Of a DNA stretch of 64,000 nucleotides, positions 4,683 through 48,372 are shown piece after piece. The notes under the pieces were generated by a model that searched no databases, was not told the origin of the DNA, and saw only the letters and a program-made list of their open reading frames with translations. The position numbers were made by a program, and so were the translations under genes. The stretch is from a virus. Taxonomy: Duplodnaviria; Heunggongvirae; Uroviricota; Caudoviricetes. Position 1 is the stretch's first letter. Each line of letters begins with the position of its first letter. The stretch covers positions 25,164 to 89,163 of IMG/VR virus record IMGVR_UViG_3300021976_000008; one strand, 5' to 3'.

Positions 4683-6495
4683 GCGGAGCATCGCCAGGAT
4701 CATTCGTCGGGCTGTCAAGTCGGCGATCGCTGAAGCTGTCTCGACGGCTCGGGTGTCGACGCAGCTCTCCGGCACTGTTGAGCAGGTGGACGAAGATCTC
4801 GATGTTGTCTGGGTTCGCATGGACAACGAGGTACTCGGCGCCGACCCCATGCAGTCGCTCAACTACGAGGCCCCTGGCATCGTTCCCGCGACGCGCCTGG
4901 GAGAGACCTTCACCGACGAACAGGTTCGAGTCACCTTCGATGGCCCTGCCGGTGCGACGGCTCAGCGCACCAGCGTCGAGAACCGGATCGTGCTGCCTTT
5001 CGGTGCTGAAGGTGAGCGCATCGTTCTTGACGGTGAAGAGGGAGCGATTGGCTTCTATGACATCGACGGTGATCTGGTCGGGTACCTGGACCCGGCTCAA
5101 TGGTTCATTGGCAAGTCTGGTGAATCTCTGCTCCGACTCGACCCCCTAGGCGGGCTTCGCCTGCGGGACAGCAACGACATCCTCAGGGCACAGCTCTCGG
5201 CCCCTGAGGGGCTCGTCATCTCAGACCCAGTAAGCGGCATCTCGGGCCTGATCGCCAACCACGACGGCCTGATGATCCTCGACCCGGCGACCGGGGAGCG
5301 GATCTCGATCACGAGTGGAGGAACGTCAGGCACGCCGACGCCGAGCTGGGCTGGGACCGTGGCGCTCAGTCCCGGCGCCACGCACAGCACGCCAGCGGTC
5401 ACTGACTTCGGGACGGGCGACGATCTCGATATCCGCTTCACGGCGTGCTCGGCCGCCGCCAACCTGGGCGCCCAGAGCTACACCCCGCCCGCCGGATGGA
5501 CCGAGCAGACCGATCAGAACGTGTCGGCGAGCGGGATCACGTTGGGATCCTCGTGCGCGACCAAGGACCCCGCGGACGCCGTGCCGGGCGTGGCCAACTT
5601 CACCAACACATCCGCAGCGTTCACGCGACGCAACGGTCATAGCGTCATCGTTCGAGGCGGAGGCGGGGTCTCGCCCGCCTTTCGCTCCGCCAGCACCGAG
5701 GCCGTCGTTTCCACCGCTGCATCCATCGGGTTCGACATTGACGCTCCGGCCGGGCTAGCTGCTGGCGACCTGGCCCTGGCGCACGTCTCTATCGCATCCA
5801 ACCGAGTCCCGATCGGCTGGACCGTGCCGGATGGCTGGAAGCAGGTCGGGATCGTGGTCGCTGGCCTCGGGACCACCCACATCCTCGCCTCGGGGATCTG
5901 GTACATCCAGGCGCCCGCCTCGCCCCCCTCGATGGAGCACGTCGCCATCAACATGGGCTCGACCGGACTTACCCGAGTGCAGGCCACCGTCGTGGCCATC
6001 AGCGATCCCTATGAGTTCCCGACTGGGCTCGACATCCGCCAGGGCAACCGGTCGATGCCAAGAGGTCTGATGGGTGAGGCAATCGGGACCTCCACTACCA
6101 CGAACTGGGCGAACGCCGCGCTACCGCAGACCGTCGAGACGATCAGCAACGTGGATCTGCTGGCCGGTCGGAGCTACAAGATCGCCTACGACGTCCCGAA
6201 CTACACGTTCAACGGGATCAGTTCTGCTTCTCGCTTCGCTATCGACATTGAGATGGACACGGGGTCGGGGTTCACGCTCTTCCATACGATCATCGCTCGA
6301 TCCATGAGCGTGGCCGGCACGGAAAACGGACCAGCGAGCGGCAGCATCTCCTATGTTCCAGCGGGGAATGAGACGATCAGCCTGCGTAGCCGGGTACGAC
6401 AGATAGCCGCTGGGACCGGTTTCAACATCCAGTTGAGCGGCTCGGCCCAGGCTCGCAGATGGCTCTATATCGAGGACACGGGCGCGGTGTTCTAG
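4669..6495 (+). CDS. minor tail protein (608 aa)
   Basis: Large Ser/Thr/Gly-rich ORF overlapping the upstream tail gene stop; position in the tail-gene block. Confidence 0.6.
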   Translation: MTLSERSIARIIRRAVKSAIAEAVSTARVSTQLSGTVEQVDEDLDVVWVRMDNEVLGADPMQSLNYEAPGIVPATRLGETFTDEQVRVTFDGPAGATAQRTSVENRIVLPFGAEGERIVLDGEEGAIGFYDIDGDLVGYLDPAQWFIGKSGESLLRLDPLGGLRLRDSNDILRAQLSAPEGLVISDPVSGISGLIANHDGLMILDPATGERISITSGGTSGTPTPSWAGTVALSPGATHSTPAVTDFGTGDDLDIRFTACSAAANLGAQSYTPPAGWTEQTDQNVSASGITLGSSCATKDPADAVPGVANFTNTSAAFTRRNGHSVIVRGGGGVSPAFRSASTEAVVSTAASIGFDIDAPAGLAAGDLALAHVSIASNRVPIGWTVPDGWKQVGIVVAGLGTTHILASGIWYIQAPASPPSMEHVAINMGSTGLTRVQATVVAISDPYEFPTGLDIRQGNRSMPRGLMGEAIGTSTTTNWANAALPQTVETISNVDLLAGRSYKIAYDVPNYTFNGISSASRFAIDIEMDTGSGFTLFHTIIARSMSVAGTENGPASGSISYVPAGNETISLRSRVRQIAAGTGFNIQLSGSAQARRWLYIEDTGAVF

Positions 6496-6549
6496 AGGGT
6501 TTGTCATCGCGGTGTTGACGTAATTCCCCCGATCCGAGAGGAACCCATT

Positions 6550-6789
6550 ATGACCGTTCAGGCCACTGTTGTTCCTGAAGATGGCACCCCTGCGCTGATC
6601 ACCGCCCCGTCGGGTGAGTTCATTGTCAGTTACTACTACGAAGTCAATGACGCCGAAGAGGCTCAATCCATATCTGGATGGGTCCGAGCAACTCATACTC
6701 GGGATGAATCGAACCGATCCACAGCCGTCACGCTTGTCGCTGAGTACCCCGGGACAGTGACATTCGAGGCGTTCGTGCTGTCGCTGTGA
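6550..6789 (+). CDS. hypothetical protein (79 aa)
   Basis: ATG preceded by GAGAGGAA RBS. Confidence 0.5.
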   Translation: MTVQATVVPEDGTPALITAPSGEFIVSYYYEVNDAEEAQSISGWVRATHTRDESNRSTAVTLVAEYPGTVTFEAFVLSL

Positions 6790-6980
6790 CCACAGGAGCT
6801 AGCGATCGACTCGAACAAGATCTGCATTTACTGCATGGTCCTTTGGCGAAGCTCGATTCGTTGCTGGGTGTGTGGTCGTCGTGGCGCTCCATGCAGGTTG
6901 TCGCTGCAACAGATACTCGTCCGCACTGAGCGGCAGTTGAGAGGCAGATATGCACGGTTTCAACAAGAAGGGAGAGACTG

Positions 6981-7829
6981 ATGGGAACCCTTGCCGGTCA
7001 TCGGTATCTGACGCGAGCTGAGTGGGTAGCCCGTCCCCCCACTTCGCCGTTTGCCCACATGCCGTCATTGCCGACTCCCCGCTTGTGGATTCACCACTCG
7101 GGCGACGATCGGCAGGGCGCTGCGGCGGTACGAGGTCATCAGCAGTATCACCAGAACACTCGGGACTGGAAGGACATCGCCTACAACTTCCTGGTCGACG
7201 ACGACGGCATCATCTATGAGGGCCGTGGCGCCGGCATCGCTGGTGGAGCGACCGAGGGCGACAACTCGAAGTCCCATGCCATCTGCCTGCTCGGCAACTT
7301 CGAGAACCGCCCTGTCACTTCGAGAGCCTGGCAGGCGACGGTCGACCTCGCTCGACACGGCCGCGATCGCGGTTGGTGGAAGCCGACCTGCGGCGGTCAC
7401 CGCGATGCCCCTGGTGCCCAGACCTCCTGTCCTGGCCGCCTTCTCTACAACCGGCTGCCCGACATGCGCCGCGAGGTCGTCAGTGGCGCCACCATCGCAT
7501 CCGAGCCCCCTGCTGCACCGGAGGAACCTGACATGACCCCAGAAGAGTGTCGCACCGTGGTGCGCGCCGAGAACCAGCGTCTCGCGCAGTACCTCATGAC
7601 CGGAGCAGGCAATCAGGCGTTCAACCCGAACATCCAGAAGTGGATGGCAGCAGCGACTACCTTGCCCCGGCTCTTTGCCGCTGTCCGCGCCGAAGGCACT
7701 GACGTCGATGAGGCGGAGATCGCTGCGCTCGTGCTCGCTGGGCTCAGCCCGCAGGCGATCGCCGATGCGATCCCTGCTGTCATCGCTGTTGAGGTGGTCG
7801 ATCTGCTGGCTGCGCGTCTGGCCGGTTGA
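6981..7829 (+). CDS. lysA: endolysin, N-acetylmuramoyl-L-alanine amidase (PGRP/Amidase_2 domain) with C-terminal extension
   Basis: PGRP-like motifs HHSGDD..YNFLVDDDGIIYEGRG..GHRD..C; located directly after tail genes. Confidence 0.8.
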   Translation: MGTLAGHRYLTRAEWVARPPTSPFAHMPSLPTPRLWIHHSGDDRQGAAAVRGHQQYHQNTRDWKDIAYNFLVDDDGIIYEGRGAGIAGGATEGDNSKSHAICLLGNFENRPVTSRAWQATVDLARHGRDRGWWKPTCGGHRDAPGAQTSCPGRLLYNRLPDMRREVVSGATIASEPPAAPEEPDMTPEECRTVVRAENQRLAQYLMTGAGNQAFNPNIQKWMAAATTLPRLFAAVRAEGTDVDEAEIAALVLAGLSPQAIADAIPAVIAVEVVDLLAARLAG

Positions 7830-8204
7830 GTGATCATCGCCGTCGGCCTAATAGCGGCTGGCCTAATGGAGCCGATCACCATTGTCGCGCTCATTGGCGC
7901 AAGCTCGACGCTGCTCAGTGCAGCGTTCGCCGCGTGGGCGGCGGTCAAACAGCGCCGCACCGAGGACGTCAGGCTCGGCTATGACGCCATGCGTTCCGCC
8001 CTGGACAACTACCGCACCGACAACGTCGATCTGCGGGGCCGAGTGGAGAAGGCCGACGTTCGTATCTATAACGCTGAGCAGCGCGTCTACACCGCGGAAC
8101 AGCGAATGATTGATCTCATCTCAAAGGTCGATCGATGTGAAGCGGACAAGGCTGTTCTTGGCGAGAAGGTCGCCGATCTCGAACGGAGGGCATCTGGTGC
8201 CTAG
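7830..8204 (+). CDS. holin-like membrane protein (N-terminal TM helices, C-terminal coiled coil)
   Basis: GTG start abutting the lysin stop; hydrophobic N-terminus MIIAVGLIAAGLMEPITIVALIGASSTLL. Confidence 0.5.
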   Translation: MIIAVGLIAAGLMEPITIVALIGASSTLLSAAFAAWAAVKQRRTEDVRLGYDAMRSALDNYRTDNVDLRGRVEKADVRIYNAEQRVYTAEQRMIDLISKVDRCEADKAVLGEKVADLERRASGA

Positions 8205-8523
8205 AGCGTTTTCAGCCCCAAATATCAATCTCCTCTCGGGGATCATCGGCGCCATTGCGTCGGTGTTCTTGAGCATAGCGGTGGTGGTGCTTGTCAATCA
8301 GAACAGCGGCCAAGCGGACGAGCTTGCGTGTCGCTCAGAACTCGCCGCTGAGGTTGACGTCCTGCGGAGCGAGATCACTATTGCCTTGAGTCAGGGCTTG
8401 ATCGCCATAACCAACGGTGATGACGCTGATGTCGTTGTCGTTGTCGAGCGGCTGCGTGGCCTTCAGGATGAGCTGGCCGAGGCGTCAGAGCGTCGGGCGC
8501 AAACCGTGGAGATCTGCGGATGA
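8197..8523 (+). CDS. membrane protein, possible second holin or lysis accessory protein
   Basis: GGAGGG RBS then GTG; TM segment LLSGIIGAIASVFLSIAVVVLV. Confidence 0.45.
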   Translation: MPRAFSAPNINLLSGIIGAIASVFLSIAVVVLVNQNSGQADELACRSELAAEVDVLRSEITIALSQGLIAITNGDDADVVVVVERLRGLQDELAEASERRAQTVEICG

Positions 8524-8711
8524 CGACCACCTGTCCAGCCGCCAAAGCAATGCAGCAGTTGACCGACCGGGAACGTGCAGAGATGCAGTCCATCCTCGAC
8601 AACGGCATCGCATCACACGTCATCGCTGTCTGGTTCTCCACCCAGCGCAACATCAAGGTCACGGCTGCTGCCGTGAACTCACATCGGAGAGGACTCTGTG
8701 GGTGTAGCTGA
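8520..8711 (+). CDS. hypothetical protein (63 aa)
   Basis: ATGA start/stop overlap with upstream gene. Confidence 0.4.
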   Translation: MTTTCPAAKAMQQLTDRERAEMQSILDNGIASHVIAVWFSTQRNIKVTAAAVNSHRRGLCGCS

Positions 8712-9798
8712 CGAGATTGCCGATCTTCAATTTGGGCAACGTGTCGCTGAGCTTGAGCTGCAAGTAGAGCAACAGAAGGCGAAGCTTTCGGCGAAGAGCG
8801 CGGCGTTCCGTTTGGTGACGAAGAAGCTCACGGAGCTTGAACGGCACGTACTTCTCAACGAGGCATTCTTCACAGCGACACCTGAGCCACCTCAGTGGCT
8901 CGTGCAGAAGCCGGCGCTGCGGACCCGACACGTGACTGTCTGCGCCATGCTCTCCGACACTCACTTCGATGAGGTCGTGAACCCTCGTGAGGTCAACAGC
9001 GTCAACGCCTACAACCGAGAGATAGCGACACAGCGGCTACGACGGTTCTTCGACAAGGTCATCAGCCTGCCTCGTGACCACTTCGGTGGTCACGAGTACC
9101 AGGGCGTCGTCATCTTCATGGGCGGCGACATGATCTCTGGCGACATCCATGAAGAGCTGCGCGAGACCAACGAGGACACCATCCTCGGCACCTGCCTCTA
9201 CTGGTCCGAGCAACTCGCCGCCGGTTTCAGCATGCTCGCCGATGCCTATGAGCAAGTACACGTCATCAGCGTGTGCGGCAATCACGCTCGACGCACTCGC
9301 AAGGAGAGAGCGAAGCTTCGGGCTCGGGACTCCTTCGACTGGCTGCTTGCCCACATGACAGCTCGTGCGGTGTCGGCCGAGAACGTGACATGGCAGATCC
9401 CAGAAGAGACCGACGCTCGGGTCACGGTGCAGAACACTCGTTATCTCCTCACTCACGGGAACCTGGGTTTCAGTGGAGGCGGAGGAATTGGCGGGGCCTG
9501 GATGTCGATTGTTCGAGGGGACCTGAGACGCCGGCAGCGCGAGAACGCTGCCGGCGAAACGTACGACACCTTGCTCGTCGGTCATTGGCACTGTTACCGA
9601 ACCGGCGGTGAGTTCGTCATCAATGGGTGCTTAAAGGGCGTGGACGAATATGCGTACTCGCGCTCGTTCGGCCTAGAGCCTCCGAAGCAGGCGCTTTGGT
9701 TGGAGACAGCGGACTATGGCCCCTTTGGTCACACGCCGATCTACTGCGCCCCCATGCTCCCCGATGGCCGGATCGATCGCAAGAACGAAGGTTGGTAA
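8698..9798 (+). CDS. calcineurin-like metallophosphoesterase with N-terminal coiled coil
   Basis: Motifs DTHFDE, GDMISGDIHEE, GNHAR, THGN typical of the metallophosphatase superfamily. Confidence 0.7.
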   Translation: MGVADEIADLQFGQRVAELELQVEQQKAKLSAKSAAFRLVTKKLTELERHVLLNEAFFTATPEPPQWLVQKPALRTRHVTVCAMLSDTHFDEVVNPREVNSVNAYNREIATQRLRRFFDKVISLPRDHFGGHEYQGVVIFMGGDMISGDIHEELRETNEDTILGTCLYWSEQLAAGFSMLADAYEQVHVISVCGNHARRTRKERAKLRARDSFDWLLAHMTARAVSAENVTWQIPEETDARVTVQNTRYLLTHGNLGFSGGGGIGGAWMSIVRGDLRRRQRENAAGETYDTLLVGHWHCYRTGGEFVINGCLKGVDEYAYSRSFGLEPPKQALWLETADYGPFGHTPIYCAPMLPDGRIDRKNEGW

Positions 9799-9988: not shown

Positions 9989-10903
9989 ATGGCTCGCATC
10001 GGAATCGATCTCGACGGTTGCGTCTACAACTTCGTAGCCGCTCTCCGCAACTATCGCTCTTCGAAGGGCGTCTCATTCGAGTCGATGCCCGAGCCGACAT
10101 CTTGGGAGGTGTGGCGCGACTGGGGAATAACCAAGGAAGAGTTCATCCAGGCGCAGATCGACGCCGAGGCTGTCGGGCTCTTCCACCAGGGTCAAGCGTA
10201 CTTCGGAGCCATTGAAGCCTTGAAGCAGCTCAAAGAGGCTGGGCACTCCATCCACATCATCACCCACCGCCTGCGTCCGGCTGCTCAGACGAGCACGATC
10301 GGATGGCTCAACGCCAACGACGTCCCCTACGACACGCTCACCTTCACTGGGGAGAAGGGCGGCTACCCGGTCGATATCTGCATCGAGGACAACATCGACA
10401 ACGCCCGCGCCATCGAAGCATCGGGCGTTCCGTGCGTCCTTATGAACCGTAGCTGGAACTCTCGCGACACCTGGAGTCGACGTGTCGTCTTCTGGCATCA
10501 GTTCGTGGAGCTGGTACGCAAAGAGGACGTCCTCCTCCGTACGGCTCGCCCGGCTACAGGCGAGGTCCGTGAGACCTCGCCGACTGGTGGAGAGAAAGGC
10601 TCGAAGCCCGAGCAATACTCGATGATCCCGGTAGCCGCTCTGGCTGAGGTGGCCCGAGTCTACGCGATGGGCGCCGATAAGTACTCGCGAGACAACTGGC
10701 GCAAGGGATACCCATGGCACCTGTCCTACGACGCCCTACAGCGCCACATCAACTCCTTCTGGGCCGGGCAGGACTTCGACACCCAGAGCGGGCTCCACCA
10801 CCTTGCCCATGCGACCTTCCATCTCTTCGCTCTCATGACCTATGGCGGAGATCTTGAGAAGTATGCGCAGTACGACGACCGCTATCGGGAGGTGTCGGGA
10901 TGA
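9989..10903 (+). CDS. fusion protein: HAD-type 5'(3')-deoxyribonucleotidase-like N-domain plus dATP/dGTP diphosphohydrolase-like C-domain
   Basis: N-term IGIDLDGCVYNF (HAD motif I); C-term WRKGYPW..SYDALQRH..HHLAHATFHL resembles dGTP_diPhyd_N family. Confidence 0.55.
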   Translation: MARIGIDLDGCVYNFVAALRNYRSSKGVSFESMPEPTSWEVWRDWGITKEEFIQAQIDAEAVGLFHQGQAYFGAIEALKQLKEAGHSIHIITHRLRPAAQTSTIGWLNANDVPYDTLTFTGEKGGYPVDICIEDNIDNARAIEASGVPCVLMNRSWNSRDTWSRRVVFWHQFVELVRKEDVLLRTARPATGEVRETSPTGGEKGSKPEQYSMIPVAALAEVARVYAMGADKYSRDNWRKGYPWHLSYDALQRHINSFWAGQDFDTQSGLHHLAHATFHLFALMTYGGDLEKYAQYDDRYREVSG

Positions 10904-11136
10904 GGGGTATCTGCACCAACTGCATGGCGTTCGGGAACGTCCGGAATGTTCCCGTCGGCAACGACAAGGGGCACCAGCGAGATCCCTATCGGGATCAGAT
11001 CCCCCTCTGCTCCCTCTGCGAAGAGGCGCTTGGGAAGGGCTCGCTGCGCGAGTTCCATGAGCGCTATGAGGACAGCACGACGGTTTACCGCGACGCACTC
11101 GAACCGGAGAAGGAAACCGATGGCAGGGTCACGTAA
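10900..11136 (+). CDS. zinc-finger protein (78 aa)
   Basis: CTNCMAF..CSLCEE cysteine pairs; ATGA coupling. Confidence 0.45.
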   Translation: MRGICTNCMAFGNVRNVPVGNDKGHQRDPYRDQIPLCSLCEEALGKGSLREFHERYEDSTTVYRDALEPEKETDGRVT

Positions 11137-11503
11137 GCCCAACCCCACTCACATCACTCGCTACGAGAGCGAGAGCCACGGTACGAAAGACAGCCAGGGA
11201 ACGCCGTGGCGGTCTTCCCACTACGACCACGGGATCAACGTGCCGGCGGAGTACACGGACGAGATCCGACGCAAGGGGTTCGTTCGAGTCGATGAGACCA
11301 ACGCTGACTACTGGGGTCGCTTGCTCGACGAGCAGGACGATGGCCGTGGCGTCGGCTGGACCGATGGGTACCGGCGGATGGTGGAGAGTCGAGCCGGCGA
11401 CGAGGGGCTCCACTCGGTGCGGACGTGGACCGTTGGCCACATCGTCTGGCCCGGCAAGGCCGACGAGGCATGCAGGGACTGTTCTTATCGGGGAGAAGCG
11501 TGA
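11120..11503 (+). CDS. hypothetical protein (127 aa)
   Basis: ATG at codon 59 of the longer ORF; protein-like composition from MAGSRKPNP. Confidence 0.45.
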   Translation: MAGSRKPNPTHITRYESESHGTKDSQGTPWRSSHYDHGINVPAEYTDEIRRKGFVRVDETNADYWGRLLDEQDDGRGVGWTDGYRRMVESRAGDEGLHSVRTWTVGHIVWPGKADEACRDCSYRGEA

Positions 11504-12102
11504 TGCGACCCGGCGTCACGGTCGTGATTCCGACCATCCCACCTCGCGTTGACATGCTCGAACGCGCTATCCGCTCGACCATGCTTCAGACAAGGTCACC
11601 AGAGGCCCTCAGCGTCGCCCTGGACCTCTCGCACGAGGGCGCGGGTCCCACAAGGACCCGAGCCCTCCGCAACGTCTCTACGGAGTTCAGCGCCTTCCTA
11701 GACGACGACGACTACCTCTATCCCAACCACCTCGAAACGCTCATGGCCGTGCAGGAGCAGACAGGCGCCCTCGTCTGTTGGTCATGGTGGGACGGGAACC
11801 GAGTCTGGGACTACGAGTGCGAGGAACGGCGCTGCCCGGATAACTGCCATCGACACAAGGCGATGGACTTCGAGCACCCGCACCTCTTCGGGATCACCTA
11901 CCTGGTGAACACGGAACTCGCACAGCAGTGCGAGTTCCCCGGACCGGAGCCTGGCGAGGAGTTCTATGGCAACGAGGACTACCACTTCCTTCTACAACTG
12001 ACCAAGCTTACCAAGCCGAGCGACTGGGCTCACGATCCCCGGATCACCTGGCACTACTCCGTCCACGGGGGCAACACGAGCGGCCGAGGCGACCGATGGT
12101 GA
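11503..12102 (+). CDS. glycosyltransferase family 2
   Basis: VTVVIPTIPPRVDMLERAIRS...AFLDDDD (GT-A DxD) ; start overlaps upstream stop. Confidence 0.75.
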   Translation: MRPGVTVVIPTIPPRVDMLERAIRSTMLQTRSPEALSVALDLSHEGAGPTRTRALRNVSTEFSAFLDDDDYLYPNHLETLMAVQEQTGALVCWSWWDGNRVWDYECEERRCPDNCHRHKAMDFEHPHLFGITYLVNTELAQQCEFPGPEPGEEFYGNEDYHFLLQLTKLTKPSDWAHDPRITWHYSVHGGNTSGRGDRW

Positions 12103-12746
12103 GCATCTCCGTCGTCGTGCCGAGCATCCCGCCTCGGGTCGAGCAGCGCGCCGATATCCAAAGGCAGATCGAAGCGCAGACGCGTCCACCAGATGAGCTG
12201 ATCGTTTGGATAGACGAGGTTGGTGCAGGAGCCGCGGTTACTCGCAACATCGGAATGGCACAGGCCAGCTCTGAGTTCATCGCCTTCTTTGATGACGACG
12301 ACGAGATGTACCCCAATCATCTCGAACTGCTCGAACGCACGCAGCGGAGAACAAACGCCGACTTCGTCTACCCGTGGCACCACATCAGGCCCCCGATGCG
12401 CAATCCACTAGCGGTCTGCGGCGAAGATCCGTTCGGGCGACCATTCGATTACGCCGCGAGGCGACAGATCCTGCATGGCATCAACTTCATCCCGATAGCC
12501 GTGCTGGTCCGTCGCGAGCTGATGCTGAGCATCGGTGGCTTCCATGACTTCAAATTGGACGAATGGGACCCGGAGCGCTGCGAGATCCTCAACGCCTGGC
12601 AAAAGCTCCTACGAGCTGGGGCCTCCTTCGCCCACTGCCCATATAGGACGTGGGCCGCTGTGCGGAATGGCCAGAACACGGCCGGGCTCGGCTGGCGGGA
12701 ACACATCGGCACCAAGCAACGCGGCTACGACGAAGGAGACCGCTAG
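12096..12746 (+). CDS. glycosyltransferase family 2 (paralogue of previous)
   Basis: ISVVVPSIPPRV...AFFDDDDEMYPNHLE; ATGGTGA overlap. Confidence 0.75.
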   Translation: MVSISVVVPSIPPRVEQRADIQRQIEAQTRPPDELIVWIDEVGAGAAVTRNIGMAQASSEFIAFFDDDDEMYPNHLELLERTQRRTNADFVYPWHHIRPPMRNPLAVCGEDPFGRPFDYAARRQILHGINFIPIAVLVRRELMLSIGGFHDFKLDEWDPERCEILNAWQKLLRAGASFAHCPYRTWAAVRNGQNTAGLGWREHIGTKQRGYDEGDR

Positions 12747-13354
12747 TGCTGGAAGTCGTCCAGGAACCTTTCCCTCACGCCATCGTCGACGGCTACTGGG
12801 ATCAAGACCTTCTCCGCGACGTACGCGAAGAGATCTGTCTCATCGACGTCGCCCTCTGCCGCCGCTACAACAACGAACGCGAGAACAAGTACGACGCCGG
12901 GGTGCACCTGTTCGGAGCGCAGACGCGGGCGCTCTTCGATCAGATCCGCTCCTTGACTCCGCTACTCAGCGAAGCCTTCGGTGTCCCCGATCTGGAAATG
13001 GAGGAGAACAGCGGGTGTCACCTGATCCCCCCGGGCGGGTATCTCGCTGTCCACACTGACTGGAATCGCAGCCAGGTGACCAAGCTCTACCGGCGGCTGA
13101 ACCTCCTCATCTATCTCAATGAGGGATGGTCGGAGGAGGGGGGCTGCTTGCACATCGAGGGGGTCGATCCTCCGACGCTCATCCGCATCGAGCCCGAGTT
13201 CAACCGGATGGTCGCTTTCGAGGCAAGTGACCGGAGCTGGCATGGGCATCCGCTACCAGCGGAGCGGTGGCGCTTCAGCGCCGCCGGCTACTTCTCGTCA
13301 CCCGAGCCTCCTCCGGGCTACATGGAAGAGCACGACACGCTGTGGCTCCGATGA
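12746..13354 (+). CDS. 2OG-Fe(II) oxygenase superfamily protein (prolyl-4-hydroxylase-like)
   Basis: HTDWN..(Hx D) ...LNLLIYLNEGW...RMVAFEASDRSWHGHP (distal His, RxS). Confidence 0.65.
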   Translation: MLEVVQEPFPHAIVDGYWDQDLLRDVREEICLIDVALCRRYNNERENKYDAGVHLFGAQTRALFDQIRSLTPLLSEAFGVPDLEMEENSGCHLIPPGGYLAVHTDWNRSQVTKLYRRLNLLIYLNEGWSEEGGCLHIEGVDPPTLIRIEPEFNRMVAFEASDRSWHGHPLPAERWRFSAAGYFSSPEPPPGYMEEHDTLWLR

Positions 13355-13983
13355 CCCATATCGCAGTCTGCATCCCGTCGATCGGCAAGTCCGGGCAGAT
13401 GCTCGATGACCTCATTGCCGTGTGTCGTGCGGAGCGAAGCGTCATCCACATCGGCGTCTACGACAACAGCGCAGATGGCTCCTGTGGTCAGGGGATGCCT
13501 CGCCCAGGCTGGACGATCTACGAGGAGTTCAACGAATTCGGCGAGCTGTGGAACAACCACGCACACATGGCCTACCTGAATGACGACATCGTCATGGCCC
13601 CCGGCACACTCGACGCTCTCGCTGCTGAGTTCGTAGGCAATGCTGACCTCGGACTCATATCCGTCGATCGTGACGAGGCACGAGCGAGGGTTCGGCCTAG
13701 TCGTGTACGGCGCACCGCTGGCACGGTGCGCCAGGGTGGCATCAACTCCTGGCTGTTCATGGTTAGGCGCTTCTGCTGGCCGGGAATCGATGAGCGATTC
13801 CAGGTGTGGTATGGGGACGATGATCTCATTTGGAAGATCAGAGAGCGAGACAAGGAAGTCGCTGTCCTCGAAGGTGTAAGCGTCGAGCATCGCCATTCGC
13901 TGACACTGAACACGATCCCCGGTGTCGGTGAACTGCAAGCTGCCGACGCGGATCTGTGGCATCGACAGATGGGGCGCCCGTGA
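13351..13983 (+). CDS. putative glycosyltransferase (GT-A-like)
   Basis: ATGA-coupled; N-terminal Rossmann-like start HIAVCIPSIGK and YGDDDL motif. Confidence 0.5.
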   Translation: MTHIAVCIPSIGKSGQMLDDLIAVCRAERSVIHIGVYDNSADGSCGQGMPRPGWTIYEEFNEFGELWNNHAHMAYLNDDIVMAPGTLDALAAEFVGNADLGLISVDRDEARARVRPSRVRRTAGTVRQGGINSWLFMVRRFCWPGIDERFQVWYGDDDLIWKIRERDKEVAVLEGVSVEHRHSLTLNTIPGVGELQAADADLWHRQMGRP

Positions 13984-14600
13984 TCGGCTACGGAATTTGC
14001 GTTGGCTCGTGGGACAAGTTCCATCGCTACATCGCGCCGAAGGTCAGAGATCGACCCGTCATCGCCATGTCGGGACAGAAGTCGATCAGCATCGCATACA
14101 ACAAGATCCTCAACGAGTTCTACGACTACGACCCAGAGCTTGAGGCCGTCGTGTTGCTGCATGACGACCTTGAGATGGCAGACACCCACGTCGAGGAGAA
14201 GATCCGAGCGGCGATCGAACCCGACGTTGGGCTTATCGGCGTAGCCGGCGGCGGACCAAGCATGTGGTGGTGGAACCATGACCCGATCGGCCATCAGATA
14301 ACTGACACTCGCCTGCTTGAGTTTGGCAATAGGCGCTCCGGTGACGTCGCCATGATCGAAGGCAGCTTCATGGTGTTCACCCGCCGGGCGGTCAAGTGTC
14401 TTCGATTTGATGAGCGCTACGAGTTCTTGGGCTACGACGATATCTGTCTACATGCTCGGGAGATCGAGCTGCGTGTGGTGGTCGCTGACATCACCACCCA
14501 CCATCACTCGACCCTTGGCTTCAAATCGAAAGAGGTCGAGGCGATGTGGAAGCGATCCGAGCGGATCTTCGAGTCCAAATGGGGAAGGCCCCATGACTGA
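13980..14600 (+). CDS. glycosyltransferase (GT-A fold)
   Basis: VIGYGICVGSWDKF...VVLLHDDLEM...GYDDICL motifs; GTGA coupling. Confidence 0.6.
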   Translation: MIGYGICVGSWDKFHRYIAPKVRDRPVIAMSGQKSISIAYNKILNEFYDYDPELEAVVLLHDDLEMADTHVEEKIRAAIEPDVGLIGVAGGGPSMWWWNHDPIGHQITDTRLLEFGNRRSGDVAMIEGSFMVFTRRAVKCLRFDERYEFLGYDDICLHAREIELRVVVADITTHHHSTLGFKSKEVEAMWKRSERIFESKWGRPHD

Positions 14601-14838
14601 AGACTGTCGCTGTATCTGCTACTGCGAGCACACGCTAAGCGAGCACGGCGAGGGCATCTTCGGTCGTCCATGTCTAAAGGACTGCTACTGCTCAGCGTTC
14701 GAGCGCTACCTCGAAAACGACGCTGAGCCCTGCGGGAAGCACCCCGGCTGCGGCGTCCATCTCGACGGCTGGTGCTACTGCGGTGACATCGATGCCAGCG
14801 GGCACGCCATGGTCTGCGCGGAGTGCTTCGATGGCTAA
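14593..14838 (+). CDS. Cys-rich small protein (81 aa, 12 Cys)
   Basis: MTEDCRCICYCEH...; embedded in glycosylation operon by ATGA coupling. Confidence 0.5.
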   Translation: MTEDCRCICYCEHTLSEHGEGIFGRPCLKDCYCSAFERYLENDAEPCGKHPGCGVHLDGWCYCGDIDASGHAMVCAECFDG

Positions 14839-15796
14839 GCGAGTCCTGGTCACAGGCGGCCGGGGCTTCGCCGGCCGCCACACGATCGAGCATCTGCTTG
14901 CTACGACGGATTGGCACATCACCACGCTCGAACGGCCACGGCACCAGCCGTCCATCAGCGATCGCCTCGTGCAACTGCCACACGATCTACGCAAGCCGAT
15001 CCCCGACTGGCTGAGCGAGGATTGGATCGGCCACGTGGATGCGGTGATCCACCTCGCCGCCTCGGCGGATGTGCATCAGTGCTTAAAGGCCCCGTCTGAG
15101 CACGTGCTCAACAACGTGGGTGGCGTACTGACAATGCTCGAATGGGCACGCTCACGGCGCCTGAGCCACTTCGTGCTGGTATCGACCAACGAAGTCTACG
15201 GGCCGACCCTCGTCGGCCCGGACGGGAAGAAGGAGTGGTCGCCGATCATTCCCGCGACGCCCTACTCCGGCAGCAAGGCGGCGCAGGAAGCACTGGCGAT
15301 CTCGTGGTGGCGAACGTTCGATGTTCCCGTCGTCATCACCAACACGATGCAGCTCTTTGGCATTGGGCAACCGAACGAGCGATTCATCCCGACTGTCGTC
15401 AGGCACTTGACGCGAGGCGAGCCCGTACCGGTCTATGCCCTCTGGACCGGCAGCGAATGGCGTTCGGCTAGTCGATGCTGGACCTATGTCAACAACCACG
15501 CTGACGCCCTCAGATGGATTCTGAGCCGCGGGCCTCAAGCCTCGCCTTCGCGCCCCGCTCGATGGAACATCGCTGGCCCAGAGTTGAGCTGTGAGCGACT
15601 CGTGCGGCGCATCGCTGAGCTGCTTGGAGTCGAACCGGAGTTCGAGTTTGTCGAGAGTGACACCGCTCGTCCTGGCCATGAGCTGAGGTACTCGCTCGAC
15701 ACCACGAAGATCCATGACGCGGGTTGGAGCGAGCCATTCGACTTCGATTACGCGTTGGCGGAGACCGTAACGGAACTAGCGAGGGGAAAGCGATGA
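14831..15796 (+). CDS. NAD-dependent epimerase/dehydratase (NDP-sugar 4,6-dehydratase/4-epimerase family)
   Basis: VLVTGGRGFAGRH (GxxGxxG) and YSGSKAAQE (YxxxK) catalytic motifs. Confidence 0.8.
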   Translation: MAKRVLVTGGRGFAGRHTIEHLLATTDWHITTLERPRHQPSISDRLVQLPHDLRKPIPDWLSEDWIGHVDAVIHLAASADVHQCLKAPSEHVLNNVGGVLTMLEWARSRRLSHFVLVSTNEVYGPTLVGPDGKKEWSPIIPATPYSGSKAAQEALAISWWRTFDVPVVITNTMQLFGIGQPNERFIPTVVRHLTRGEPVPVYALWTGSEWRSASRCWTYVNNHADALRWILSRGPQASPSRPARWNIAGPELSCERLVRRIAELLGVEPEFEFVESDTARPGHELRYSLDTTKIHDAGWSEPFDFDYALAETVTELARGKR

Positions 15797-16989
15797 AGCG
15801 CCATTTCTGTGCCGCCTGCGGCTACGACAACCTTGAGATGTTCCTCGACCTCGGGCTGTCGCCAATCGCCGATGCCTATACGAGCGAGCCACGCGAGGTC
15901 AGTCCTCGATTCCCGCTTCAGGTGGGGGTCTGCACGGGCTGCTGGCTCGTGCAGCTCTTGGAAGTCGTTGACCATCAGATCCTGTTTGGCACCGGCTACA
16001 GCTTCTACAGCTCTGCATCGGCGCCGCTCTCGGCTTACCACGAGGACTACGCCACCGATGTCCTGAAGGATTTCCGTCCTTTGGCAGAACGGCTGACTGT
16101 CGAGATCGGATGCAACGACGGCGACATGCTGTATCACTTCGCCGAGGCGGGATGCAGGGTACTAGGAGTCGACCCGGCCTCTGGGCCGGTGTCGGTCGCT
16201 CGCACCCACGGGCTCGATGTCCGAGAAGAGCCGTTCTGCCTGAACACCGCTAAGCAGATCGTCGGCGAGCATGGCCCGGCCGGCGTCGTCATTGCCAACC
16301 ACGTCCTCGCTCATGTCGAGTCGGTGAGCGGTGTCCTTGAGGGCATTGCCTATCTACTGGCCGACGATGGCATTGCTTTCATCGAGGTGCAGTACCTGCC
16401 GGACCTCCTCGTGAACAATGCCTTCGATCTCATCTACCACGAGCACCGCAACTTCTTCTCGCTCACGAGCCTGACAAGCGCCCTAAGCCAATGGGACCTA
16501 CACGTAGCCAAGGTCGAGCTGACCGACCGACAGGGGGGCTCTCTTCGTGTCTGCGTCACCAAGCGGCCAGGCCACAACTCCGGCAGCGATCGCATCATTG
16601 CCAAGGAAGCCTGGCTCAATCAGGTCGGGGTCTACCGCGGGTTCCAGGGGCGAATCGAGCGCATCCGAGATCGACTGCTCGACCTGATCCACGGTGAGTT
16701 CGAGGGGCAATGCGTCGCTGGCTACGGCGCCCCGGCCAAGGCGACCACGCTTCTCAACTACTGCTCGTTGACCGACAGCGACATCAGCTTCGTGATCGAC
16801 TCCACGGCCGCCAAGCAAGGCCGCTACATCCCGGGCACGGGCATCCTGATCGTCAGTCCAGAGACCCCAATTGACTCTGCCGACGCGATGCTTCTTTTGA
16901 GTTGGAATTACTCCGCGCAGATCATCCGCAACAACGCCGACTATCGAGGTAAGTGGATCATCCCGATCCCGGCACCGATGGTCCTATGA
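15793..16989 (+). CDS. NDP-hexose C-methyltransferase (TylC3-like: Zn-ribbon N-domain, class I SAM MTase, C-MTase C-domain)
   Basis: CAACGYDNLEMFLDLGLSPIADAY N-terminal zinc domain; GCNDGDML SAM motif; C-terminal GYGAPAKATTLLNYC. Confidence 0.75.
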   Translation: MKRHFCAACGYDNLEMFLDLGLSPIADAYTSEPREVSPRFPLQVGVCTGCWLVQLLEVVDHQILFGTGYSFYSSASAPLSAYHEDYATDVLKDFRPLAERLTVEIGCNDGDMLYHFAEAGCRVLGVDPASGPVSVARTHGLDVREEPFCLNTAKQIVGEHGPAGVVIANHVLAHVESVSGVLEGIAYLLADDGIAFIEVQYLPDLLVNNAFDLIYHEHRNFFSLTSLTSALSQWDLHVAKVELTDRQGGSLRVCVTKRPGHNSGSDRIIAKEAWLNQVGVYRGFQGRIERIRDRLLDLIHGEFEGQCVAGYGAPAKATTLLNYCSLTDSDISFVIDSTAAKQGRYIPGTGILIVSPETPIDSADAMLLLSWNYSAQIIRNNADYRGKWIIPIPAPMVL

Positions 16990-17981
16990 AGGTCTTCGTG
17001 TCGCCAGGTGATACCGGCCCCTGTGGCTACTACCGCCTTATCTGGCCGGCACGTGCGGCCGCTTGGCACGAGGAAGTCGAGATCGCCGACGATCGCTACA
17101 TCGGCTGGCGGATGGATGACTACATCAACTATCTGACCAAGCCTCACGCTGACGTCGTCGTTATCCAGCGGCCATCGAATCAGACCACGGTCGACGCAGT
17201 ACCCAGGCTCCGTGCTCGGGGGATCGCCGTCGTCGTGGACATGGACGACGACCTCTCCTCCGTCCACCCCGACAACGCCGCCTACTACTGGGCTCAGGAG
17301 TTCAACGACTACGCGATGAAGGCATGCGCTCAGGCCAGCCTCGTCACTGTCACAACAGAAGCACTCGCCAAACGCTACGCGCCTCACGGGCGCGTACGCA
17401 TCCTGCCCAATTGCGTGCCGGCCTCGTATCTCAAGATCCCACATCGAGATAGCGGCTTGGTTGGCTGGGGAGGCGCCCTCAGGTCACACCCGAACGATCT
17501 CGACGTGCTCGGAGACTCGATAGCGAACCTGATCGCTGCCGGCGTTGACTTCAAAGTCGTCGGTCCCAAGGGCGGCCTCGGACGGGCACTGAAGTTGGAG
17601 AAAGAACCCTTCGCTACCGACGGGGTGCCGCTGGACTATTGGCCAACCGAGTTGAGCAAGATCGGCATCGGGATCGCTCCCCTCGCACTGACGGAGTTCA
17701 ACGCAGCGAAGTCACGGCTGCGGCCGTTGGAGTACTCGGCCCTAGGTGTGCCATGGGTCGCCTCGCCGACTGCTGACTATCAGAAGTTCCATGCGCTCGG
17801 CGTTGGACGCCTCGCTAGCTCTCCTGAGGAATGGGAGTCCGAGCTATGGGGCCTTGTGATCAATCGGCACCTTCGCGACGAGCTGGCCGACGCCGGTCGA
17901 GAACTCGCTAAAGCGAACACCATCGAGGCGAACGCTTCCCAATGGATCGAGGCTTGGTCTGATGCCACGAAGAACGCATAG
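16986..17981 (+). CDS. glycosyltransferase (GT-B-like)
   Basis: ATGA-coupled last gene of the cassette; two Rossmann-like halves. Confidence 0.55.
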   Translation: MKVFVSPGDTGPCGYYRLIWPARAAAWHEEVEIADDRYIGWRMDDYINYLTKPHADVVVIQRPSNQTTVDAVPRLRARGIAVVVDMDDDLSSVHPDNAAYYWAQEFNDYAMKACAQASLVTVTTEALAKRYAPHGRVRILPNCVPASYLKIPHRDSGLVGWGGALRSHPNDLDVLGDSIANLIAAGVDFKVVGPKGGLGRALKLEKEPFATDGVPLDYWPTELSKIGIGIAPLALTEFNAAKSRLRPLEYSALGVPWVASPTADYQKFHALGVGRLASSPEEWESELWGLVINRHLRDELADAGRELAKANTIEANASQWIEAWSDATKNA

Positions 17982-25059: not shown

Positions 25060-25248
25060 CCAGCGCCATCTGGCCCTAGCTTTACCCCTGTCGTCAGTAC
25101 GGCGGCAATCCATCATCAACACCAACTGAATGCCGATTCCGTAGAACACCCGCCCAGGCGGGTGTTCTACGTTTGTATCTCCGTGACTCGGAGAGCCCCG
25201 GGCGATCGTATGAACGCCAGCTCGGATGTCGTCCGGTAGACGCGGAAA

Positions 25249-26033: not shown

Positions 26034-27578
26034 CTAAGCCGCCGCTTCCCCGGTACCCGCTGGCGCATTGTCCATCGCGATGGGTGTAAGGCAGCGAGTC
26101 CCATCGCGCCCGGGGAGGTCTCGGGGGACGCTGGGGTCGTTGCGAGTCCAGATGCGGAACTCCCCGCCACGCTGGACGGCGATGACCTCGAAGGCATCGG
26201 CTAGGAACGCTCGCCTCTCTTCGATACCGAGCGTCTCCCAGATCTCGCTGAGGTTCACGGGCAGAGCAACGCCGAGCACGGCGTTGCGAGCTTCAGCGAC
26301 AGCCTCGCGAGCTTCCATTACCCGAGCCAGACGAGCCTGTTGCCCGTCCTCGACCCAGGACTTGCCCAGAACCCGCCCCATTTCGATCGTGCTGTCCGAG
26401 ACGAGGAACTCCCTCAGCTCTGCCTCTGCGGTCTCCTGCTCCAACAGCGCGGCTTCTAGGGCGTCTGTGGACACCTCGCCACGAGCGAAGCGATCGCAGC
26501 ACGGACCGAGGAACTTGGTCCTGAAGACCTCCTCGACCGCTGCCTCGATGACGTCAGCTCGGATACGGGCCGGCGCCGGGCACTTGCCGAACGTGTGGTT
26601 GCGGCGGCAGTCGTAGTAGCGGTAGTGGCCGTAGGCGTTCTTGGTGCCGACGCCGCGCATGGTGACACCGCAGCCGGTGCAGCGGATGATGCTGGTGAGC
26701 TTGTACGTGGCCTCGTCGTTCCGCAGGACGTTCCGGTTGTGAGCGTTGGCTCGCTGCCACAGATCGAGCGACACGATGCCCTTGTGGGCGTTGAGGTTCA
26801 CGAACTCACCCGAGGTGATCTCGCCGAGGTAGACGCGAGACTGGACGAGGCGGCGCACACTGTTGATCCCCCAGAGGCCGCCTTCTCTAGTCCGGATGCC
26901 CCCTTCGTTGAGCCAGTCGGCGATCTTGGCCCAGGCCATTGGCCCGGTAGTGCCGTCGGGTCGGGGAGCTTCGGCTCGCCGCTCGAACATGCCGACGACC
27001 CAGTCCTCCTCGTCGGGGACGGACACCAAGCGACGCGTTCCGATGAGCTTGCCGTTCGGACCGGGCACGCCGTCCTTGCGGTAGCCGTAGGGCTCGGCTG
27101 TGTGGACACCGTTGGCGACGCGGCGCCGGGTGACGTCCTCCCAGCCCTTGGTGACGGACTTGAGGTACCACTCAGCCATCCACAGCAGCACGGCCAGGAT
27201 CAACTGCGACAACTCGCTACCGTCGCCGTAGATGCCGTCCTTGACGGCGATGAACACCTTGCCGTTGTTCTCCAACTCGCGCACGGCCAGGAGACCACCG
27301 ATCATGTCGCGAGCGAGGCGATCGACCTTCATGACGATGATCCCGTCGGCCTCGTCAGCAAGAACCCCAGCGACGGCTTTCTGAAGCTCCTTGCGCTCGA
27401 CCGTCTTGCCCGAGACCGAGTCGGACTCATCGAACCAGTGCACGATGCGGTGGCCGTTGGCCTTGGCCCAGGCCTCGCAGGAATCGACCTGCTCGAAGGG
27501 CGAGTGGTACGAACCGTTGTCCGAATCCGAGCGGTTGTTGTCTCGGGAGACACGCTTGATGCCGAAGAGGTCAGCCAT
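26034..27578 (-). CDS. int: large serine recombinase (phage integrase, resolvase catalytic domain + recombinase domain + zinc ribbon/coiled coil)
   Basis: N-terminal resolvase motifs with catalytic Ser (VSRDNNRSDS...), RLARD, long C-terminal recombinase domain with Cys cluster CTGCGV..C. Confidence 0.9.
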   Translation of the reverse strand: MADLFGIKRVSRDNNRSDSDNGSYHSPFEQVDSCEAWAKANGHRIVHWFDESDSVSGKTVERKELQKAVAGVLADEADGIIVMKVDRLARDMIGGLLAVRELENNGKVFIAVKDGIYGDGSELSQLILAVLLWMAEWYLKSVTKGWEDVTRRRVANGVHTAEPYGYRKDGVPGPNGKLIGTRRLVSVPDEEDWVVGMFERRAEAPRPDGTTGPMAWAKIADWLNEGGIRTREGGLWGINSVRRLVQSRVYLGEITSGEFVNLNAHKGIVSLDLWQRANAHNRNVLRNDEATYKLTSIIRCTGCGVTMRGVGTKNAYGHYRYYDCRRNHTFGKCPAPARIRADVIEAAVEEVFRTKFLGPCCDRFARGEVSTDALEAALLEQETAEAELREFLVSDSTIEMGRVLGKSWVEDGQQARLARVMEAREAVAEARNAVLGVALPVNLSEIWETLGIEERRAFLADAFEVIAVQRGGEFRIWTRNDPSVPRDLPGRDGTRCLTPIAMDNAPAGTGEAAA

Positions 27579-27808
27579 CAGCGGACTTCCATGAACTCGG
27601 CAATGCCTTCGACCGCCTGGGACTTGGTCTTCCAGTAGTGCCCGCATTCGCATGACACCGAGGCGAACCCGCCAGCTTCAGCGAGGGCCTCGCCCATGAT
27701 CATCTCGCCGGTCTCCTCATCGATCGAGACGTCCTGCACGAGGACGCCTCGACGGATTACGCGGAAGGTGAGTGAGCCGCAGCTGGTCGGGCAGTAGAGA
27801 CGGCGCAT
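27578..27808 (-). CDS. zinc-ribbon protein (76 aa) translationally coupled to integrase
   Basis: CPTSC...CECGHYW; TGATG overlap with int start. Confidence 0.5.
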   Translation of the reverse strand: MRRLYCPTSCGSLTFRVIRRGVLVQDVSIDEETGEMIMGEALAEAGGFASVSCECGHYWKTKSQAVEGIAEFMEVR

Positions 27809-48072: not shown

Positions 48073-48372
48073 ATGGCTGTTGATTACGATGTTGATGCTG
48101 CGAGGATCACGCTTTGGCGCGATCATCACCGCGCCCGGTCTCGCGTGCATAAGAAACGAGCAACAATGATGAACGCCGAATCAACACGCTGGAAGGAGGA
48201 CCAAAGAGAGATTGAACACAGGTTGGACCAACTACATGAACGCGCAGGTAACGAATGTTCGGCGCTCAAGTCAACACTCAAAGAGCTTGACTCGTTGTAT
48301 ATTGAATATTGGCGTCTATTCTATGAGGGTTCCCAAAAGTTCCCAGACGGGAAGTGGAATGACACCCCGTGA
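48073..48372 (+). CDS. hypothetical protein (99 aa) in a low-GC patch
   Basis: Local GC about 48-50% against 66% background. Confidence 0.45.
   Translation: MAVDYDVDAARITLWRDHHRARSRVHKKRATMMNAESTRWKEDQREIEHRLDQLHERAGNECSALKSTLKELDSLYIEYWRLFYEGSQKFPDGKWNDTP

Follow-up and report, generated by a model that had tools for sequence, protein, structure and literature searches.

A phage gene cassette that pairs a sugar C-methyltransferase with a prolyl-hydroxylase-like oxygenase and probably glycosylates the virion

The IMG/VR record IMGVR_UViG_3300021976_000008 represents an uncultured tailed virus (Caudoviricetes), and we analysed positions 25,164 to 89,163 of it, a stretch of 64,000 nucleotides (nt) that is called the window here and to which coordinates refer unless another record is named. 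Nine genes, g1 to g9, occupy positions 11503 to 17981 of the window. They encode predicted glycosyltransferases (GTs), an Fe(II)/2-oxoglutarate (2OG) oxygenase, a protein related to sugar-nucleotide dehydratases, a nucleoside diphosphate (NDP)-sugar C-methyltransferase and a small Cys-rich protein. We consider it fairly probable that this is a cytoplasmic cassette, belonging to the late operon of a temperate actinobacteriophage, which glycosylates a virion protein with a methyl-branched 6-deoxyhexose. That the target would be a structural protein of the virion is suggested by the synteny of the cassette in related phages.

All nine genes lie on the plus strand and fill the interval without a gap, and publicly available gene calls for the source contig agree on all of them. 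Consecutive genes overlap by 1 to 8 nt at each of the eight internal junctions (Table 1). The initial annotation, made from the sequence alone, had described translational coupling by ATGA/GTGA overlaps; overlap is indeed present at every junction, but the ATGA/GTGA form is found at only four or five of the eight. The overlapping chain starts upstream of the cassette, at position 9989, as the open reading frames (ORFs) at 9989-10903, 10900-11136 and 11120-11503 overlap as well. A consensus scan of the chain detected no promoter-like site and no convincing plus-strand terminator, with a single weak 5-bp stem at 13978. The GC content at third codon positions (GC3) is between 0.70 and 0.80 across the nine genes.

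Eight of the nine genes are found together elsewhere. Three other contigs (L002, L076 and L077) carry g1, g2, g3, g4, g5, g7, g8 and g9 in the same order, with amino acid identities of 54 to 92%, and this conservation indicates that the cassette is not a chance arrangement. When IMG/VR was searched with g8, we obtained 48 viral contigs with a methyltransferase that is 53 to 72% identical, in addition to 13 unrelated contexts at about 30% identity. A core consisting of g5, the C-methyltransferase and a GT2-family glycosyltransferase, with or without a GT-B enzyme, recurs in the 48 contigs. The g5 homologue is directly upstream of the methyltransferase in 39 of the 42 loci with enough flanking sequence, and a GT2 gene of the g1/g2 type is present within 4 kb downstream in 36 of 43. 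Further members are a GT family that we call F1 (38 of the 48 related loci), a short-chain dehydrogenase/reductase (SDR) resembling GDP-mannose-4,6-dehydratase but without the catalytic Glu ('ASSSAIY'; closest PDB entry, 1rpn; 24 loci), a g9 homologue (21 loci) and a small S-adenosylmethionine (SAM) methyltransferase (19 loci). The g9 homologues were identified by tblastn within the loci retrieved with g8; a related-locus search of IMG/VR that started from g9 gave no match to the pattern.

The location of these related cassettes provides indirect support for virion glycosylation. In 26 of the 31 informative loci, defined as those with at least 6 kb of upstream sequence, the cassette comes directly behind capsid or tail genes: 13 times behind the genes for the S78 protease and the HK97 capsid protein, and 13 times behind tape-measure or minor tail genes. 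Virion glycosylation is further supported by the absence of membrane segments from the nine proteins (highest 19-residue hydropathy, 1.42) and by the distant homology between the g1/g2 family and phage Che8 gp108, as the hidden Markov model (HMM) of this family, F3, matches the N-terminal GT2 domain of gp108 (E value, 5e-12).

A temperate phage could also use such enzymes to glycosylate envelope polymers or proteins of its host, resulting in lysogenic conversion, superinfection exclusion or a changed receptor. Phage GTs that alter host surface glycans are well known (the Gtr systems), and a serine integrase gene and a BldD-like helix-turn-helix (HTH) gene in the window indicate a temperate lifestyle. 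Moreover, the closest solved relatives of the g1/g2 family profile, PglI (9jma; 3e-15) followed by TarP and TarS, are envelope-glycan enzymes. Nevertheless, we regard a host target as unlikely, because the nine membrane-segment-free proteins include neither a flippase nor a GT-C enzyme, because the genes form a single overlapping chain that continues from the tail, lysis and late genes and do not resemble a separately transcribed moron, and because the relatives carry the cassette inside head or tail morphogenesis modules.

Two protein families were observed in the capsid-adjacent loci. The SDR that follows the C-methyltransferase there (family F5; L039 positions 11098-12069 and 23 others) matches the GDP-mannose-4,6-dehydratase-like entry 1rpn at 1.3e-44, with Ala where the catalytic Glu would be expected. 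Its sequence suggests a reductase acting on a GDP-linked sugar, and hence a nucleotide carrier unlike that of the RmlB-like g7. The second family, F19 (L069 positions 6332-6601; also L007, L009, L018, L025 and others), consists of proteins of about 80 to 97 amino acids whose genes always separate the major capsid gene from the first GT gene and that end in a conserved T-A-(A/T)-A-P-G-E-R-R-x-x-R-R motif. F19 is a candidate decoration protein or a candidate acceptor for hydroxylation or glycosylation. We looked for F19 in the source phage and its close relative, and it was absent from both.

The methyltransferase g8 contains the domains Methyltransf_13 (7.7e-17), Methyltransf_23 (9e-18) and Methyltransf_14 (2.2e-34) and aligns from end to end with TylC3 (4rv9; 1.2e-68) and TcaB9 (3ndi; 5e-64). 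Residues C6, C9, C47 and C50, which we take from the TcaB9 literature to be the Zn ligands, and the (I)Y-x-E-H motif ('IYHEH'), which we likewise take to be catalytic, are matched by identical residues in the alignment with TylC3 and TcaB9. The TylC3-type NDP-hexose C-methyltransferase proposed initially is therefore confirmed at the level of homology, and g8 is predicted to be an NDP-hexose 3-C-methyltransferase with the three-domain architecture of TylC3 and TcaB9. More distant members of the TylC3 family, at about 30% identity and without g5 or GT2 partners, are present in 13 IMG/VR contigs (L050 to L062), some of which are 130 to 340 kb long, and at similar identity in uncultured jumbo phage records and in Synechococcus phage DSL-LC02. 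Judged by these homologues, sugar C-methylation may occur in other phage groups too.

The SDR of the cassette, g7, belongs to the Epimerase family of Pfam (3.7e-37), and its closest PDB entries are dTDP-glucose 4,6-dehydratases (2hun, 1.7e-38; bacterial RmlB, about 1e-27), with UDP-glucose 4-epimerase, GDP-6-deoxy-D-mannose reductase and UDP-glucuronic acid decarboxylase 1 following at 1e-18 to 1e-14. Both the Rossmann GxxGxxG motif (TGGRGFAG) and the catalytic Y-x-x-x-K (YSGSK) are present. In RmlB the Asp of the T-D-E triad is the acid that helps the 6-OH group to leave, and GDP-mannose dehydratases manage with T-S-E; g7 has S-T-N-E-V-Y-G, with Asn at the position of the Asp. This Asn does not result from decay: 29 of the 120 closest homologues, ranging from 100% to about 47% identity, carry T/S-N-E as well, and the remainder have TDE. 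Two of the T/S-N-E homologues were looked up (P0122 in L076 and P0129 in L077), and both are in the same cassette. Accordingly, g7 may have kept a dehydratase activity or may instead have become a ketoreductase or an epimerase. We rejected a bona fide RmlB because of the T-N-E motif and a score of 166 bits against the RmlB equivalog model TIGR01181, whose cut-off is 365. What remains of the NDP-sugar dehydratase/epimerase of the initial annotation is thus an SDR of the RmlB clade, without the canonical catalytic Asp and without an equivalog-level score.

The chemistry of TylC3-family enzymes requires a 4-keto group on the sugar. The cassette contains no nucleotidyltransferase and no recognizable 4-ketoreductase, so the pathway as written is incomplete. 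It also contains no 2,3-dehydratase, 3-ketoreductase or aminotransferase, from which it follows that the product would be a 3-C-methyl-6-deoxyhexose and not a dideoxy sugar of the mycarose type or an amino sugar. The earlier suggestion that the phage itself makes a branched deoxysugar is thus upheld only in part: a predicted C-methyltransferase and a dehydratase-like SDR are encoded, but an activating nucleotidyltransferase, a recognizable 4-ketoreductase and the canonical Asp are lacking. As the deoxysugar pathways of antibiotics typically include TylC3-type methyltransferases and RmlB-type SDRs, one could imagine that the cassette glycosylates a small molecule, such as an anti-phage metabolite of the actinomycete host or its neighbours that would be inactivated in this way. 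We give this very little credence: nothing else in the cassette points to a small-molecule acceptor, and for such a role one would not expect the cassette to follow capsid or tail genes so consistently across many phages.

The oxygenase g3 matches 2OG-FeII_Oxy_3 of Pfam (1.2e-14), and across 48 homologues there is no variation in the HxD...H iron triad (H103, D105, H166/H168) or in the 2OG-binding residues R176 and S178. Its AlphaFold2 (AF2) model is of high confidence (predicted local distance difference test score, pLDDT, 97), and a Foldseek search of the PDB with this model gave as top matches OGFOD1 (1.3e-9; TM 0.74), Pseudomonas PPHD, PHD2, Tpa1, DdPhyA (6t8m) and PolD. All of the top 50 matches are protein prolyl hydroxylases except PolD, and no TET/JBP or AlkB structure is among them. 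By sequence and predicted fold, g3 is thus assigned to the protein prolyl hydroxylases of the PHD/OGFOD1 type and is not an obvious sugar enzyme. This retains the 2OG-Fe(II) oxygenase family assigned initially but not the role in the deoxysugar pathway. A TET/JBP-like identity was also considered for g3 and was rejected, since Pfam, the PDB search and the fold all place it in the prolyl-hydroxylase clade.

Homologues of g3 are numerous (231 in a large database), and we sampled five contexts outside the source lineage. Three of these (a Lentzea atacamensis prophage, L078 and L079) show the order portal, protease, capsid, small ORF, GT of about 470 amino acids, oxygenase and SAM methyltransferase, with overlapping genes. 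The fourth has capsid, small ORF, a 474-amino-acid protein without a recorded Pfam match, oxygenase and then more GT genes, and the fifth has the oxygenase and a methyltransferase with a GT2 gene close by. Lentzea atacamensis is a cultured actinomycete, and in its prophage (QGHB01000016.1; L069 positions 6598-9093), as in L078 and L079, the capsid gene is directly followed by a minimal module of three genes, which encode a two-domain GT of about 470 amino acids, the oxygenase and a SAM methyltransferase of small size. Among cultured phages, Streptomyces phage Zuko encodes a g3 homologue, gp109 (34% identity; annotated as hypothetical), in a row of oxygenase (gp109), GT (gp108), methyltransferase (gp107) and GT2 (gp106), and Streptomyces phage KimJongPhill also carries this oxygenase, GT, methyltransferase and GT2 part. 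A GT-B gene (gp5) goes with the set of these phages. Since the minimal modules pair the oxygenase with a GT and a methyltransferase but have no sugar-nucleotide enzyme, g3 probably prepares the acceptor.

Alternatively, the target may be a virion protein while g3 hydroxylates or oxidizes the NDP-sugar or the attached glycan, the latter being O-linked to Ser/Thr as assumed for the mycobacteriophages. PolD (9blq), a 2OG enzyme that acts on a nucleoside sugar, is the best PDB match of g3 by sequence (2.7e-5) and is in the top five by fold, and g3 is located within an operon of sugar enzymes. We nonetheless find this rather unlikely in view of the other top fold matches, and because an oxygenase that occurs in modules without a sugar-nucleotide enzyme would be independent of any special sugar.

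DNA is another conceivable substrate. In that case the oxygenase would hydroxylate a base and the GTs would add sugars to the phage DNA, in the style of the C5-MT/TET(5mYOX)/GT or ThyS/GT systems. An oxygenase, several GTs and a sugar SDR superficially resemble the clusters that Pyle et al. place in subclasses I and II, which can adjoin structural genes too. A gene with NT5C and dGTP diphosphohydrolase domains is located 600 bp upstream of the cassette, and the distant homologues of g9 in phi92-like coliphages lack an established function. We consider DNA hypermodification improbable, however, because g3 falls in the prolyl-hydroxylase clade, g8 is a full-length sugar C-methyltransferase and not a DNA C5-methyltransferase, and the oxygenase-GT module is repeatedly embedded between capsid and head-tail genes. 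In addition, no thymidylate-synthase-like, DNA_methylase or Tet_JBP domain was detected in about 40 ORFs of the window, a scan that covered the small ORFs only in part.

The two GT2 paralogues described initially, g1 and g2, were confirmed, as both match Glycos_transf_2 (2.6e-6 and 2.3e-9, respectively) and they are 44% identical to each other over 91 residues. In addition, g1 matches PHROG 14775 (8.3e-30) and the F3 HMM (3e-72) and has a DDDD motif, and g2 is homologous to Zuko gp106 and Atuin gp169. The prediction of two further GT-A-like enzymes fared less well. For g5 it stands, with a match to Glyco_tranf_2_5 just above threshold (2.3e-6; 27.9 bits, cut-off 27) and a match of its family profile to the 2qgi/2nxv protein at 3e-4; tblastn against cultured phages gave nothing. 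For g4, which has no match in Pfam or NCBIfam, the links are weak: PHROG 22332 'glycosyltransferase' (3.9e-7), the HMM made from the C-terminal GT domain of F1, the family to which Zuko gp108 belongs (8e-8), and an NDD motif. Homologues of g4 come after the C-methyltransferase in L003, L005 and L010. The assignment of g9 as a GT-B-like glycosyltransferase is upheld by Glyco_trans_1_2 at threshold (25.1 bits, cut-off 25) and by PHROG 7162 'glycosyltransferase' (2.6e-37). It is 37% identical to gp165 of Arthrobacter phage Atuin, annotated as 'glycosyltransferase', and distantly homologous to proteins of phi92-like coliphages; a PDB sequence search gave no match. Overall, the enzyme assignments of the initial annotation mostly survive the HMM, PDB and fold checks.

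Taken as a pathway, glycosylation of the virion could proceed as follows. An NDP-hexose supplied by the host would be converted into an NDP-4-keto-6-deoxyhexose by g7 or by a dehydratase of the host; the enzyme families are observed, and the substrates are presumed from them. With SAM, g8 would then methylate C-3, presumably of this intermediate, giving a donor with a 3-C-methyl-branched 6-deoxyhexose. The activating nucleotidyltransferase would be left to the host, and the final reduction of the 4-keto group would probably be performed by a host reductase or by a bifunctional g7. The oxygenase g3 would hydroxylate a residue of the acceptor protein, most likely a proline, or, less likely, modify the sugar. 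The GT-A-type enzymes g1, g2, g4 and g5 and the GT-B-type enzyme g9 would build an oligosaccharide on the virion structural protein before or during assembly.

Several results weigh against virion glycosylation with a phage-made branched sugar. The absence of a nucleotidyltransferase and a 4-ketoreductase and the Asn of g7 count against the sugar pathway, and the presence of the nucleoside-modifying PolD among the nearest structures of g3 counts against a protein acceptor for that enzyme. In the source lineage the cassette is not next to a capsid gene. The closest relative (IMG/VR UViG_3300020034_000006) has the order terminase, portal, S78 protease, HK97-type capsid and tail tube, and BLAST found no similarity between the capsid protein of the close relative and the capsids that adjoin other cassettes, which means that no shared target site can be argued. 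We checked the tail tube, tape measure and tail proteins for a Ser/Thr/Pro-rich, acceptor-like extension and saw nothing distinctive, so the Thr/Ser-rich tail proteins proposed initially as candidate targets do not stand out. Finally, no homologue of Che8 gp110 or Corndog gp38, GTs reported to be essential, is detectable in the cassette.

Two proteins of the region belong to no known family. The gene up1 overlaps the start of g1. In L002, L076 and L077, g1 is immediately preceded by a homologue of up1 whose product shares its N-terminus (MAGSRKPNPTHITRYE...), and a Pfam search with up1 gave no match. Based on this conserved position, up1 could be a tenth member of the cassette or even the acceptor. 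The other protein is g6, with 13 Cys and 5 His in 81 amino acids. It is the sole open frame (GC3, 0.78) of a 230-bp insert that is unique to the source phage, as g5 abuts g7 in L002, L076 and L077. A search of 5.8 billion proteins returned only g6 itself, a PDB search gave only insignificant matches (E values of 0.09 to 0.18), exhaustive HMMER searches gave only weak matches to Cys-rich repeat proteins, and the AF2 model made from the single sequence is unusable (pLDDT, 42). The '12-Cys small protein' counted initially among the cassette genes thus has 13 Cys and is an insert that three relatives lack, although they have the remaining eight genes. It appears to be a recent ORFan insertion, dispensable for the conserved eight-gene unit, and it may bind zinc.

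The source virus is an uncultured, siphovirus-like temperate actinobacteriophage. Its contig of about 89 kb has a high GC content (about 62%), and the window covers 64 kb of it. The same sequence with other break points is present in Logan SRR7026477_4311 (89,157 bp) and ENA ERZ27267804 k141_1022293 (89,276 bp), and a further copy is on record at JGI (89,163 bp). The differing break points indicate a complete circular or circularly permuted genome. In megablast searches of INPHARED with the cassette and with the region from 40 to 64 kb, no cultured phage matched at the nucleotide level. A scan of 185,579 species-representative genomes for relatives of g8 yielded only three contigs of metagenome-assembled genomes, and therefore the host can be described just as 'actinomycete-like'.

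The genes around the cassette (Table 1) agree with the phage context given in the initial annotation. A tail tube gene, a tape measure gene and several tail genes lie ahead of the window start and occupy its first 6.5 kb. Lysis genes are next, and about 3 kb of nucleotide-metabolism-like genes separate them from the cassette. Downstream there are about 7 kb of small ORFs, followed by the BldD-like HTH gene and, on the other strand, the serine integrase gene. Taken together, the integrase gene and the Prim-Pol replication gene indicate that most of the genome of a temperate phage lies within the window. Relatives also have the NT5C-diphosphohydrolase fusion gene ahead of the cassette, as in L076; in L077 it is split. 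The window encodes an SPFH/Band-7 protein, and in Atuin the gene for a band-7-like membrane protein (gp168; L065 positions 11535-12419) sits between the g9-like and g1-like GT genes; this may be coincidence. Between 54000 and 64000 the GC content drops to 54 to 60%, the GC skew is strongly positive and few ORFs have a high GC3, a composition unlike that of the rest of the phage.

Table 1. Genes of the cassette, their junctions and other features of the window
Feature	Position	Strand	Description
Endolysin	6981-7829		Amidase_2 endolysin; two small hydrophobic proteins next
Phosphoesterase	8698-9798		Phosphoesterase/exonuclease-like gene upstream of cassette
NT5C fusion	9989-10903		Fusion of NT5C-type 5'(3')-deoxyribonucleotidase and dATP/dGTP diphosphohydrolase N-domain; part of overlapping chain
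up1	11120-11503	+	Conserved 127-amino-acid protein; overlaps g1 start
g1	11503-12102	+	GT2-family (GT-A) glycosyltransferase, paralogue of g2
g1/g2 junction			7-nt overlap (ATGGTGA), or GTGA with alternative start 12099
g2	12096-12746	+	GT2-family glycosyltransferase
g2/g3 junction			1-nt overlap (TAGTG)
g3	12746-13354	+	Predicted Fe(II)/2OG oxygenase, PHD/OGFOD1/Tpa1 prolyl-hydroxylase type
g3/g4 junction			ATGA
g4	13351-13983	+	Probable GT-A-like glycosyltransferase, weak evidence
g4/g5 junction			GTGA
g5	13980-14600	+	GT-A-like protein, constant upstream partner of the C-methyltransferase
g5/g6 junction			8-nt overlap
g6	14593-14838	+	81-amino-acid Cys-rich ORFan, lineage-specific insertion
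g6/g7 junction			8-nt overlap
g7	14831-15796	+	Extended SDR, dTDP-glucose 4,6-dehydratase clade, T-N-E for T-D-E
g7/g8 junction			ATGA
g8	15793-16989	+	Predicted NDP-hexose 3-C-methyltransferase (TylC3/TcaB9 family)
g8/g9 junction			ATGA
g9	16986-17981	+	GT-B-like glycosyltransferase
Integrase	26034-27653	-	Serine integrase
SPFH/Band-7	44892-45893		SPFH/Band-7 protein
Prim-Pol	48212-50116		Prim-Pol and AAA_25 primase/helicase-type replication protein
FtsK/SpoIIIE	60047-61240		FtsK/SpoIIIE-type gene

A broader idea, which we put forward only tentatively and which we consider doubtful in its full form, is that many soil actinophages have a Skp1-like pathway. In such a pathway a PHD-type hydroxylase of the phage would act on a capsid-associated protein, converting a proline (or another residue) into its hydroxylated form, and soluble phage GTs would build on this residue, in the present case with a 3-C-methyl-branched 6-deoxyhexose made by the phage. 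If this is true, it would amount to hydroxy-amino-acid-linked glycosylation of bacterial virus particles; in the literature that could be searched, no report of a hydroxylated amino acid as acceptor linkage in phages was found. The size of the family, with at least 48 viral contigs that have the C-methyltransferase core and more than 200 oxygenase homologues, suggests that glycosylation of virions may be more widespread and chemically richer than in the few mycobacteriophages, and the branched-chain sugar has otherwise been described from antibiotics and from a small number of glycans on bacterial surfaces. Cassettes of this type are widespread among uncultured soil actinophages. Parts of the system can be tested in cultured phages, namely Zuko and KimJongPhill (oxygenase, GT, methyltransferase and GT2) and Atuin (g1 and g9 homologues).

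Virion glycosylation in mycobacteriophages was demonstrated only recently and in few phages, where it shields the particles from antibodies. According to the accounts in PMC11600133, PMC12363180 and PMC12619734, phage GTs glycosylate the virions of Che8, Corndog and Myrna, with the glycans located at the C-termini of the capsid and tail tube subunits, and Corndog has an O-methyltransferase and three GTs (same sources, citing Freeman et al. 2023). The cassette described here resembles these systems in being an actinobacteriophage cluster of soluble GTs, which sometimes includes a methyltransferase, with five GT-like genes in our case, and in the placement of its relatives in head or tail modules. 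At the sequence level the relationship is remote: of the Che8 proteins only the N-terminus of gp108 is homologous, to the g1/g2 family, with no detectable similarity to gp109 or gp110, or to gp37 or gp38 of Corndog. Unlike those systems, the cassette adds a predicted sugar 3-C-methyltransferase, an SDR of the RmlB clade and a prolyl-hydroxylase-like oxygenase. In the literature searched, in which Freeman et al. 2023 was represented by the papers citing it, none of these three (a sugar C-methyltransferase, an RmlB-type SDR and a prolyl-hydroxylase-like oxygenase) is described for a phage virion-glycosylation cassette.

Compared to the Gtr serotype-conversion systems, the nine proteins include no membrane flippase (GtrA), polyprenyl-phosphate GT or GT-C transferase. 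The sugar-hypermodification clusters for phage DNA share with the cassette the combination of an oxygenase, GTs and a sugar-nucleotide SDR, but the oxygenase is of the wrong family and neither a DNA methyltransferase nor a ThyS homologue is among the ORFs scanned. In all three of its domains, in the Zn site and in the catalytic motif, g8 agrees with TylC3, TcaB9 and KijD1 from antibiotic pathways, whereas those enzymes act after 2,3-dehydratase/3-ketoreductase or aminotransferase steps for which the cassette has no genes. The Skp1 pathway of Dictyostelium and Toxoplasma, in which the prolyl hydroxylase PhyA acts first and soluble cytoplasmic GTs then glycosylate the hydroxyproline, offers an analogy only, as its GTs show no sequence-level orthology to those of the phage. 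What the cassette shares with it, and with the collagen hydroxylase-glucosyltransferase L230 of Mimivirus, is a PHD-type hydroxylase beside soluble GT-A glycosyltransferases.

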